Part shown: one piece after another, positions 18,494-20,581 of the stretch
Position numbering within the stretch: the first letter of the stretch is position 1
Layout: each line of letters begins with the position of its first letter
Assembly (NCBI GenBank): GCA_031431175.1
Contig: JANPCY010000003.1
Span: 1 to 24,601 of the forward strand
Source of the DNA: Steroidobacteraceae bacterium
GTDB taxonomy: Bacteria > Pseudomonadota > Gammaproteobacteria > Steroidobacterales > Steroidobacteraceae
Length of the DNA: 24,601 nt
Direction of reading: 5' to 3'
The notes under the pieces: model-generated
Databases searched by the model: none
What the model was told of the DNA's origin: nothing
Seen by the model: only the letters and a program-made list of their open reading frames with translations
Translations under genes and position numbers: made by a program

Positions 18494-20581
18494 TTGAAAG
18501 GTAATTCTACAGCCAGGAAAGAGGCGTCCCCCGGGCGCTCGAACGAAGAGAATCGGCGGCGTCAGCTCATTGAAGTGACCATCGACAGTCTCGCAGAACT
18601 GGGCTATCCCGGCACGACCCTTGTGCAGATTGCCAGCAGGGCCGGCGTTACGCCGGGCCTGGTCGCGCATTATTTCGCCGACAAGGACGGCCTGCTCGCA
18701 GCCGCGTTCCGCACGCTGGTGCGTCGAGTCGGCAAACAGGTTCGCATGCGCCTGCCAGAGGTAAGCGCTCCGCGCGACCGGATTCATGCACTCATCGACG
18801 GCCATCTGGCTCCCGAGGAATTCGATCAGCGCAGTGGCAGGGCGTGGCTTGCATTCTGGAGCCAGGTGCCGCAGGTCGAAAGTCTCAAGCGCGTGCAGAC
18901 CGTTTACCAGCGCCGCCTGTTGTCCAATCTTCGCAGCTCCCTTAAACGGCTGGTGCCGGCGCAGGAAGTGCACGGTCTTGCCGCAATCATCGCCGCAATG
19001 ATCGACGGGGTGTGGTTGCGGGCAGCATTTTCCGATTGGCGCGAGGCGGATAGCAGCAGTGCGCGCGCGCTGGTGAGTGCCTTTGTGGATCGTCATCTCA
19101 CGGACAACGCGCGTGCCGACCATCCGATCGAACCAGCCCCTGCACGGGCCAATCATCCGGTTGCGCCCGTCGCGGGCGAGCGCCTGGCATCGCTGAATCC
19201 TGCGACGGGCGAGCTGCTCGGTCATGTCCCCGTGGCCGGCGTCCAGGATATCGAGGCAGCAGTACGGGCCGCACGTGCAGCACAACCTGCGTGGGCGTCG
19301 ATGAGTGGGGCGGAACGCGCCCGTATCCTGCGCCGCGCCGCCGCGATCCTGCGCGCGCGCAATGACGAACTGGCGACGCTCGAGACCCGCGACACCGGCA
19401 AGCCAATCCAGGAGACGCGCGTCGTCGATGTCGTCTCAGGCGCCGAGTGCCTCGAGTATTTCGCCGCGCTCACGCAGAGTGCAGCGGGCGAGCATATCGA
19501 CCTCGGCCCGCAGGCATTTGGCTACACGCGCCGCGAGCCGCTCGGCATCGTCGCCGGCATCGGCGCCTGGAACTATCCGCTGCAGATCGCCTGCTGGAAG
19601 TCCGCCCCCGCGCTCGCCTTCGGCAACGCGATGATCTTCAAGCCCGCCAGCCTCACGCCACTCTCGGCCGTCGAGCTCGAGAAGATCTACCACGAGGCCG
19701 GCCTGCCGCCCGGCATCTTCCAGGTGGTGCAGGGCCATTCCGACACCGGACGTCTGCTGACGCGCCATCCGGAGATCCGCAAAGTATCGCTGACGGGGTC
19801 GGTTGGTACCGGCAAGGCGGTCATGAAAGATGCCTCTACCACGGTCAAGGCAGTGACGCTCGAACTCGGCGGCAAGTCGCCGCTGATCGTCTTTGAGGAC
19901 GCGAAACTCGACCAGGCCGTTTCCGGCGCGCTGCTCGCCAATTTCTATTCCGCGGGCGAGGTCTGCTCGAACGGCACGCGCGTCTTCGTGCACCGCAACG
20001 TCAAGGACGAGTTCCTCCGCAAGCTTGCCGCGCGCGTCCGCGCCATGCGCATCGGCGACCCCATGGACCCGGCGACGCAGGTCGGCTCGCTTATTTCCGA
20101 AGAGCACATGCAAATGGTCCTCGGCTACATCGCTCGCGGGCGTGCGGAAGGTGCGCGCGTGCTCGTGGGCGGCAATCGCCGTACTGATGGCGCGCTCGCA
20201 AAGGGATTCTTCGTGGAGCCGACGGTCTTCGATGGCTGCCGCGACGACATGAGCATCGTACGCGAGGAGATTTTCGGCCCGGTGATGTCGGTGCTGGAGT
20301 TCGAGGACGAGGAAGAAGTCATCGGGCGCGCGAACGCCACCGAGTTCGGCCTGTCCGCTGGAGTTTTCACCAACGACCTCAACCGTGCGCATCGCGTGAT
20401 CGCGATGCTCCAGGCCGGAACCTGCTGGATCAACCACTACAACGTAACCCCGGTGGAGCTCCCCTTCGGCGGTGTCAAGCTCTCGGGACTCGGCCGTGAG
20501 AATGGCCGTGCCGCGATGGAGCATTACACGCAGCTGAAGAGCGTTTACGTCGCGAAAGGCGATGTCGATGCGCCCTACTGA
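18494..20581 (+). CDS. betI-betB: Fusion of BetI (TetR-family choline-responsive repressor) and betaine aldehyde dehydrogenase BetB
   Basis: N-terminal Tet[17 protein letters not shown]...[28 protein letters not shown] and BetI-type WLAFW, RRLLSNL and [10 protein letters not shown] Pro-rich linker follows, then ALDH motifs [34 protein letters not shown] (catalytic Glu), GEVCSNG (catalytic Cys), EEIFGPV and [20 protein letters not shown] at 18482-18486 favours TTG 18494; the ORF is open from 18455. Confidence 0.9.

Follow-up and report, generated by a model that had tools for sequence, protein, structure and literature searches.

Can a single polypeptide act both as the choline-responsive repressor BetI and as the betaine aldehyde dehydrogenase (BADH) BetB, and does the enzyme part then belong to the regulatory device? 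This question is raised by a locus in a stretch of 24,601 nucleotides from a Steroidobacteraceae metagenome-assembled genome (MAG), hereafter the window, in which the two proteins are encoded by one reading frame. TetR-family repressors are, to our knowledge, nearly always free-standing proteins of ~200 residues, and we know of few chains that are both enzyme and repressor (PutA, BirA, NadR); BirA and NadR are single chains that combine an enzyme with the repressor of a related operon. The first-pass annotation of this DNA knew of no characterised BetI-BetB fusion, and we likewise found none by full-text literature search or in a 2025 ALDH review (PMC12041015). Judged from its sequence, the ~75-kDa product most probably serves the choline-to-glycine-betaine pathway in two ways, as its BetI repressor and as its BetB enzyme.

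One reading frame for BetI and BetB

The features of the locus are listed below in window coordinates. Domain residue numbers of the protein are counted from GTG 18455.

15260-16717, minus strand: importer ATPase gene, after the OpuAC-permease gene
16471..18387, minus strand: choline/betaine ABC importer gene (OpuAC binding domain fused to permease; Pfam), divergent
18332..18347, plus strand: second BetI-box-like site, TTGAATGACCGTTTAG, 2 mismatches, at the transporter end of the divergent region
18482..18487, plus strand: Shine-Dalgarno-like GGAGGG, 6 nt 5' of the TTG start
18494..20581, plus strand: fused betI-betB gene, one uninterrupted open frame of 695 codons from TTG 18494
18494..18509, plus strand: BetI-box-like palindrome, TTGAAAGGTAATTCTA, 2 mismatches to TTGAAY-N4-RTTCAA, overlapping the TTG start
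18545..19099, plus strand: BetI module (TetR HTH and BetI-type C-terminal ligand domain), residues 31-215
19100..19171, plus strand: Ala/Pro-rich linker of ~24 residues, residues 216-239
19172..20578, plus strand: betaine aldehyde dehydrogenase module, residues 240-708
19571-19573, 19862-19864 and 19964-19966, plus strand: catalytic codons of Asn373, Glu470 and Cys504
20562..22232, plus strand: betA (GMC choline dehydrogenase; Pfam), with a 20-nt overlap with the end of the fused gene

The fused betI-betB is a real single gene that encodes a complete BetI, a linker and a complete BADH. TTG 18494 is also the start of the 695-aa database gene call (P0002), and the homologous TTG was likewise called as start in the fused gene of genome G096. 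A Shine-Dalgarno-like purine run was found 4-15 nt 5' of the homologous TTG in 64/74 fused loci. The same frame is open already from GTG 18455, an alternative start that would yield 708 codons.

Pfam and NCBIfam profiles identified both modules. TetR_N (PF00440) matched residues 38-84 with 40 bits (cut-off 24) and TetR_C_6 (PF13977) residues 106-215 with 81.3 bits (cut-off 27); the BetI equivalog NF001978 scored 182.7 bits, above its cut-off of 118, and TIGR03384 scored 189.9 bits, slightly below its cut-off of 201.3. The protein has the domains and the palindromic boxes of a BetI, and departs from the free-standing form of ~200 aa by the 469-residue ALDH module fused to it. In this module Pfam Aldedh covered residues 242-697 (585 bits), and the BADH equivalog NF009725 scored 766.3 bits against a cut-off of 593 over profile positions 19-488. 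TIGR01804 reached 663.9 bits, marginally below its cut-off of 668.6, in a match that begins after the first 10-18 profile positions. Among solved structures, the BADHs from P. aeruginosa and Klebsiella are nearest to the module. The first reading of the sequence had described a BetB without its usual first segment and with catalytic Cys and Glu intact, and both observations stand. The first beta strand of a complete BetB N-terminus (profile positions 1-18) is absent, the match starting at residue 20 of the P. aeruginosa BADH chain, and Cys504 and Glu470 are present together with Asn373 and GxGxxG (G448-G453), all of them invariant among 64 fused relatives. Asn, Glu and Cys are retained by 197/233 fused proteins. 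In the genome of the window this is the sole ALDH above the BADH cut-off, with no second BADH.

Both halves are intact and under selection. Between the window and relative G009, dN/dS was 0.11 for the BetI module and 0.105 for the ALDH module, and the mean pairwise identities among fused relatives were 81.7% and 84.2%, respectively. For the linker the corresponding values were 0.78, which is nearly neutral, and 33.8%. The spacing from DGxWLR to NPATG ranged from 49 to 75 residues in 64 loci. In AF2 models the BetI module had pLDDT values mostly of 80-93, and the linker, with values <50, is predicted to be disordered between two confidently folded modules. A complex prediction of the BetI module with the ALDH module scored 0.00 and gave no answer; the modules alone reached pLDDT 84 and 93.

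It is very improbable that the fusion reflects an assembly or sequencing error, or that BetI and BetB are made as separate chains through internal initiation or proteolysis. An error might be suspected in a fragmented source MAG (569 contigs, 81% complete), but Logan contigs from two sequencing runs, made on two samples of a single study, span the junction without indels, including the region 19080-19200 for which the first-pass annotation had advised verification of reads. The contigs of run X1 cover 18509-19202 and 19177-19419 with 0 differences, and those of run X2 cover 18855-19139 and 19143-19342 with no indels. Independent assemblies, megabase contigs among them, carry the same fusion, and the linker lengths of fused relatives differ by whole codons only. 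Against two chains stands the linker of the window protein, in which the reported lack of Met extends to all in-frame ATG, GTG and TTG codons; a linker start codon with a Shine-Dalgarno-like run was found in just 8/64 loci, at positions that are not conserved. The profile matches and the junction-crossing contigs together bear out the in-frame fusion that had been read from the letters.

Distribution and origin of the fusion

Fused-length relatives of the BetI part were found in 2,640 protein clusters, and the best 120 of these all had the architecture TetR_N + TetR_C_6 + Aldedh. The best 80 species-level genome loci were likewise all fused (residues 13/31-708), most of them from Steroidobacteraceae MAGs. 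By this search of architecture and taxonomy, which had been proposed from the sequence, the fusion is no peculiarity of the window: it is the usual form across a whole bacterial family. In many soil Steroidobacteraceae it is the typical gene form, and an inherited one. The catalytically active fused examples all came from uncultured MAGs, and no cultured organism with an active fusion was found among them. Databases name the active fusion 'betaine-aldehyde dehydrogenase' and a pseudo-enzyme form 'BetI'; automatic names thus conceal a regulator in the first clade and a dead enzyme domain in the second.

The short N-terminus of BetB had been taken as an argument against a simple lost stop codon. 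This argument does not hold, for close split relatives share the short N-terminus. In L118 the betI stop directly abuts a betB that starts with GTG and encodes this short N-terminus, and in G128 the fused gene is split by frame with such a BetB retained. Standalone BetB relatives have the identical truncation. Since the same short N-terminus abuts the betI stop in split relatives, stop loss or frameshift is the simplest origin, and the fusion most likely arose by stop loss between abutting betI and betB. Several same-genus genomes have deleted the BetI part and keep BetB (G018 carries a BetI relic), and the BetI-less standalone BetBs are nested within the fused clade of the ALDH tree. Genome G011 entered just the tallies, as one of those without a close BetI, and supports no claim made here. 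In the BetI tree, obtained by a quick search, SH-aLRT was 87 for the clade with all fused rows and 97 for the next larger one. This fused clade also includes at least one real standalone BetI (P0143), along with the BetI of a split pair (P0153), and a single origin of the fusion is thus plausible, but not more than that. The ALDH tree does not resolve the branching order of the classical, fused-active and degenerate clades, and the monophyly of the degenerate clade in it may be a long-branch effect; one added classical BetB row (branch length 5.8), the only one from the class-level search, was a wrong ORF and was disregarded.

The degenerate proteins form a sister clade, in which BetI carries an ALDH fold without the Asn, Glu, Cys and GxGxxG stretch and a separate real betB lies alongside. 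Its members, which include the cultured Methylobacterium nodulans, M. indicum and M. terricola among others, encode proteins of ~660-680 aa annotated as 'transcriptional regulator BetI'. The pseudo-ALDH part scores 63-245 bits on Pfam Aldedh and still models as a BADH fold, and its dN/dS of 0.28-0.38 indicates that purifying selection persists. A dead ALDH fold kept on BetI hints that the enzyme module may serve the regulator. A conserved role in NAD(H) sensing is excluded, since the NAD-binding motifs are destroyed in this clade.

Operators and the possible role of the enzyme module

The fused gene lies in a bet locus, with betA directly 3' of it in 77/78 fused loci and the importer gene divergent and upstream in 55/77. 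The two BetI-box-like sites of the window each agree with the pattern at 10/12 specified positions and are the only such sites in the 24.6 kb. The start-codon box is conserved in 74/79 fused loci, and in the nearest relatives it matches the pattern without mismatch; the window box carries two substitutions relative to these and scores 5.7 bits with a PWM, versus a family median of 29.4. The second box is also conserved among relatives. At least two boxes, mostly 134-152 bp apart and flanking the divergent promoter region, were present in 70/75 fused loci versus 0/79 control stretches. The pseudo-ALDH loci have two TTGAAY-N4-RTTCAA boxes ~175-187 bp apart. The AT-rich, partly conserved repeat AATTAAACGTTAATTC at 18394-18406 was also considered as a BetI box; it agrees with only 9/12 pattern positions and is therefore treated as probable promoter sequence. 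A scan of 18200-18600 for sigma-70 promoters and terminators gave no match.

The conserved fusion, the equal selection on both domains and the conserved boxes make a single-chain autoregulating repressor and enzyme the most likely reading of the locus. The domain architecture with its conservation, the selection on both halves and the conserved operators are seen directly in the sequences; the choline response, the enzymatic activity and the oligomeric state of the fused protein we infer. The N-terminal TetR-type module would dimerise and bind the two boxes of the divergent regulatory region, one overlapping its own TTG start and the other on the side of the choline ABC importer. Binding would repress betIB-betA and probably the importer too, and choline would release repression as it does for free-standing BetI. 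On its flexible 24-residue linker, the C-terminal module would act as an active NAD(P)-dependent BADH, the only one of the genome. An ALDH dimer or tetramer would hold two BetI dimers, and these could span the ~150 bp between the boxes.

An autoregulating protein of this kind has to be weighed against the improbable case that the BetI module is here a decaying passenger, the product being effectively only BetB and the locus no longer under BetI control. The two substitutions in the start box would fit such decay, as would the loss of BetI in same-genus genomes, from which it follows that regulation by the BetI module may be dispensable or weakening in the lineage. However, dN/dS of the BetI module is as low as that of the ALDH part, the window protein (the reference row of the alignments) keeps every BetI residue that shows no variation in the fused family, and both boxes retain most of the pattern and are unique in the window. 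If the BetI module is functional, the question is what it gains from the enzyme. We see about an even chance that it gains little, i.e., that the protein is a passive Rosetta-stone fusion of independent modules, created by a near-neutral stop loss that ensured co-expression at most. The directly abutting genes of L118, the frame split of G128, the nested BetI-less BetBs and the near-neutral linker all agree with this, but at least 80 species-level genomes, down to ~70% identity, have kept the fusion, and the dead ALDH domain kept on BetI elsewhere is hard to explain if it is useless to the regulator. Repressors are normally needed at much lower copy number than enzymes, and a 1:1 ratio should therefore carry a cost.

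The same dead fold, kept under purifying selection beside a separate real betB, points towards an integrated PutA-like trigger enzyme whose ALDH module takes part in regulation, as does the conserved spacing of the two boxes (~150 bp in fused loci and ~175-187 bp in pseudo-ALDH loci). Possibly the occupancy by substrate or cofactor (betaine aldehyde, NAD(P)H) alters DNA binding; it is also possible that ALDH oligomerisation brings two BetI dimers together, which then bind the boxes cooperatively or loop them. We nevertheless regard an integrated device as rather unlikely. The linker varies greatly in both length and sequence and is predicted to be disordered, and relatives have split the gene (G128) or stripped it of BetI (G018) with BetB retained, which argues for modular, largely independent domains. 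Moreover, the NAD-binding motifs of the pseudo-ALDH clade are lost, and free-standing BetI also has two boxes in the divergent bet promoter region according to PMC12442346.

As a tentative and somewhat doubtful extension, the BetI-ALDH fusions may represent a trigger-enzyme lineage caught at several stages, with the ALDH module regulatory in all fused forms. The stages would be abutting split genes, an active repressor-enzyme (Steroidobacteraceae, including the window), and a repressor with a non-catalytic ALDH (Methylobacterium and other Alphaproteobacteria). In such a lineage the ALDH would most plausibly act as an oligomerisation scaffold that holds a pair of BetI dimers together and thereby allows cooperative binding, or looping, of the two conserved boxes 150-190 bp apart; it might also offer betaine aldehyde a second effector site. 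In an entire bacterial family the choline repressor is covalently attached to the pathway enzyme, and the natural fused, split, BetI-deleted and dead-enzyme variants form a ready comparative series. This series bears on what a repressor gains from riding on its enzyme, be it in stoichiometry, in oligomeric state or in the sensing of further effectors, and also on how pseudoenzyme sensor domains arise.

Comparison with known systems

In BirA the product of the enzyme is the corepressor, and catalysis and repression are thus mechanistically one. Unlike BirA, the repressor module of the window protein has its own effector pocket (TetR_C_6), and its coupling to the enzyme is only putative. The betIBA operon of E. 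coli, Pseudomonas and Ruegeria pomeroyi contains the same two families, each of which is above an equivalog cut-off in the window, and its locus is arranged on the same principle, together with betA and a choline importer. The candidate boxes, with ATTGA/TCAAT-type half-sites, resemble the experimentally footprinted BetI box reported in PMC12442346. Unlike in betIBA, BetI and BetB of the window are one polypeptide, in which BetB lacks the first ~18 profile positions, and one operator overlaps the TTG start codon.

The trifunctional PutA is like the window protein in joining a DNA-binding repressor and an ALDH-superfamily pathway enzyme in one chain, and it autoregulates a divergent regulon, as is proposed here. 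PutA uses an RHH domain, has an additional flavoenzyme and switches when its flavin is reduced and it binds the membrane (background on the family; ALDH review PMC12041015). In the window protein the DNA-binding part is a TetR HTH that brings its own ligand domain, and an enzyme-driven switch is only a candidate. The ALDH16 pseudoenzymes, described in the same review (PMC12041015), retain ALDH folds without a catalytic triad; they belong to another ALDH family without a fused DNA-binding domain and are relevant just to the pseudo-ALDH clade. The long BetI of Methylobacterium shares with the window protein the order of BetI module, variable linker and BADH-derived C-terminal fold. Its gene is likewise divergent to a choline ABC importer, with two boxes, and the BetI modules of the two fall in one clade. 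Unlike the Methylobacterium protein with its separate betB, the window protein is the one BADH of its genome and is fully catalytic in sequence.

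The fused gene and its conservation

A 708-codon open frame on the + strand begins at GTG 18455 and is closed by the stop codon 20579-20581, and residues of the fused protein are numbered from this GTG. The gene and its product contain the following features:

18482-18487, + strand: SD-like GGAGGG in the window sequence, six bases 5' of TTG 18494
18494-20581, + strand: fused betI-betB gene (betIB), from TTG start to stop
residues 38-84: TetR_N (Pfam)
residues 106-215: TetR_C_6, BetI-type (Pfam)
residues 242-697: Aldedh (Pfam, 585 bits)

The N-terminal part scored above the NCBIfam cut-off for BetI (NF001978, 182.7 bits vs. 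118), and the C-terminal part, matching profile positions 19-488, exceeded the equivalog cut-off for betaine aldehyde dehydrogenase (BADH; NF009725, 766 bits vs. 593). The ALDH part retains Asn373, Glu470, Cys504, and the glycine motif, and no in-frame ATG, GTG, or TTG was found within the linker (residues 216-239). The first-pass annotation had described a complete BetI joined in frame, through a linker without Met, to a BetB with intact catalytic Cys and Glu, and this description was borne out. Its start at 18494 was adopted on the basis of the SD-like run and public gene calls. The TTG is used by a public 695-residue gene call (P0002) and likewise in another genome of the same family, and in 64/74 loci the homologous TTG is preceded, at 4-15 nt, by a purine-rich SD-like run. 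The fused gene encodes the sole ALDH above the BADH cut-off in its genome.

Logan contigs from two metagenome runs (two samples, one study) cover 18509-19419 and 18855-19342 with no indels and at most one differing letter relative to the window. Conservation is more telling evidence than these contigs that the fusion is no artefact. A database search with the BetI part as query, restricted to proteins of fused length, matched 2,640 clusters, and the TetR_N + TetR_C_6 + Aldedh architecture suggested as a search target was found in all of the best 120 of them (680-700 residues). In one-genome-per-species contigs, each of the best 80 loci matched across residues 13/31-708 at 70-86% identity; by title most are MAGs of Steroidobacteraceae or Gammaproteobacteria, and megabase contigs carry several of the loci. 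Linker length varies in whole codons only, with 49 to 75 residues between DGxWLR and NPATG among the fused loci.

Mean pairwise identity among 64 fused sequences was 81.7% for BetI, 33.8% for the linker, and 84.2% for ALDH. The corresponding dN/dS values between the window and its orthologue in genome G009 were 0.11, 0.78, and 0.105. Selection keeps the BetI and ALDH modules equally, and the tether varies freely. AlphaFold2 on the fused-family alignment predicted two well-folded modules (pLDDT mostly 80-97) joined by a linker below 50 (pTM 0.60).

Predicted operators and operon context

In 74/79 loci, a 16-bp palindrome, TTGAAY-N4-RTTCAA, lies at the betIB start. Its half-sites are similar to the footprinted betI box of Ruegeria pomeroyi, ATTGACG*CGTCAAT (PMC12442346). 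The TTG start codon falls inside the left half-site (homologous sites in loci L026-L104), so the predicted operator overlaps the repressor's own translation start. The third codon position is conserved as well (TCA in 73/74 loci), which shows that the constraint acts on DNA. At least two boxes were present in 70 of the 75 loci with enough upstream sequence (exactly two in 66), mostly 134-152 bp apart, and control stretches inside the coding region contained none (0/79). In the window we located:

16471-18387, - strand: divergent importer gene, OpuAC substrate-binding and ABC permease domains in one frame
18332-18347: candidate BetI box
18494-18509: candidate BetI box at the start of the fused gene

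These boxes are the only matches with two or fewer mismatches in the 24.6 kb, and they lie 162 bp apart, exactly in the divergent regulatory region. The start box is mismatch-free in the nearest relatives; hence the window carries two substitutions there. Directly downstream of the fused gene, betA is found in 77/78 loci, and in the window the two genes share 20 nt. A divergent OpuAC-type importer lies upstream in 55/77 loci. The OpuAC-permease gene of the window is itself a second fusion within the same regulon. One MAG titled Caulobacter sp. contains a fused gene that is active-type by sequence (L088:4001-6013, 71% identical) and whose box, ATTGAATAATCATTCAAT, is perfectly palindromic; either the gene was transferred to an alphaproteobacterium or the sequence was misbinned.

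Split, BetI-less, and degenerate relatives

Across 201 sampled genomes of the order, a close BetI occurred solely in the window's family (6/20 genomes and the window's own). Within the window's genus it was present in just 3/61 genomes, fused in all three. In other genomes of the genus the orthologous betB adjoins the importer directly, without BetI, and betA is next in several. These standalone BetBs are nested within the fused clade of the ALDH tree (support 99) and share a truncated N-terminus (profile match from position 20), and are thus secondary losses of the BetI part. Just 5' of its standalone betB start, genome G018 retains a remnant of betI codons 39-64 (L003:1418-1495; 15/26 residues identical, plus a stretch of identical DNA), and its BetI part was deleted from a fused ancestor. 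Separately, the window's genome holds a second, weaker BetI-like TetR outside the window (contig C389:3084-3629, 72 bits). This match sits in a 625-codon open frame, which could encode a further long TetR or could have arisen by chance in GC-rich DNA; the contig also carries an ALDH gene at a distance of 3.5 kb.

Split genes were also found. In G128, of the same family (L109:1106-3309), betI and betB are in different frames, split by a frame change, and this BetB likewise falls inside the fused clade. In a metagenomic relative (L118:398-1360) the betI stop abuts the GTG start of a BetB in which just nine residues precede the NPATG motif. The short N-terminus of BetB had been offered as an argument against a lost stop codon; this argument fails, because the split L118 BetB is equally short. 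Abutting betI and betB genes of this kind would be the obvious precursor of the fusion, and fused and split states interconvert.

More distant fused proteins (27-44% identity overall) have a well-conserved BetI module. Their ALDH part scores only 63-245 bits and has lost Asn, Lys, Glu, Cys, and the GxGxxG stretch. Some, from cultured Methylobacterium nodulans, M. indicum, M. terricola, and others, are named "transcriptional regulator BetI". The example locus is:

L024:6001-8034, M. nodulans replicon CP001350.1: pseudo-ALDH BetI, ~660-680 aa (also L022, L105, L107, L108)

These genes diverge from a choline importer operon and have two well-formed boxes, 175-187 bp apart. In L022 and L024, the two loci with flanks past the ATPase gene, the importer genes are succeeded by a real betB (489-491 aa) and betA; the shorter loci end within the ATPase gene. 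In this clade dN/dS was 0.28-0.38 for the dead ALDH module vs. 0.05-0.09 for BetI. A protein with the dead module models confidently (pLDDT 81.6 overall), and the module matches solved BADHs (TM 0.76, E 9e-28) and ESM Atlas BADH models (TM 0.84). By these measures the dead module looks like a protein domain that is still maintained. The BetI-domain tree places both kinds of fused protein in one clade (SH-aLRT 87; next node 97), alongside a small number of short or standalone sequences. The ALDH tree puts the degenerate modules within the BADH family, yet not as sister to the BetB of Methylobacterium itself. A plausible history would be a single ancient fusion whose enzyme part later decayed.

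Proposed function and known ALDH fusions

The best-supported reading, which we consider probable, is a single chain comprising an autoregulating BetI and an active BetB. The free linker and the viable split and deleted variants point to modularity, and the retention of a dead ALDH fold by BetI suggests that this fold contributes to regulation. With the NAD site of the dead module destroyed, its role would more likely lie in oligomerisation than in sensing a cofactor. ALDHs form dimers or tetramers, and a pair of BetI dimers held together by ALDH could bridge the two boxes.

Public sequences of the fused protein are annotated merely "betaine-aldehyde dehydrogenase". The first-pass annotation knew of no characterised example, and our literature search likewise found no description of a BetI-BetB fusion. 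Term searches in the text of a 2025 review of ALDH fusion proteins found no mention of an ALDH fused to a DNA-binding regulator; the fusions treated there are ALDH1L, ALDH16, PutA, and AdhE (PMC12041015).
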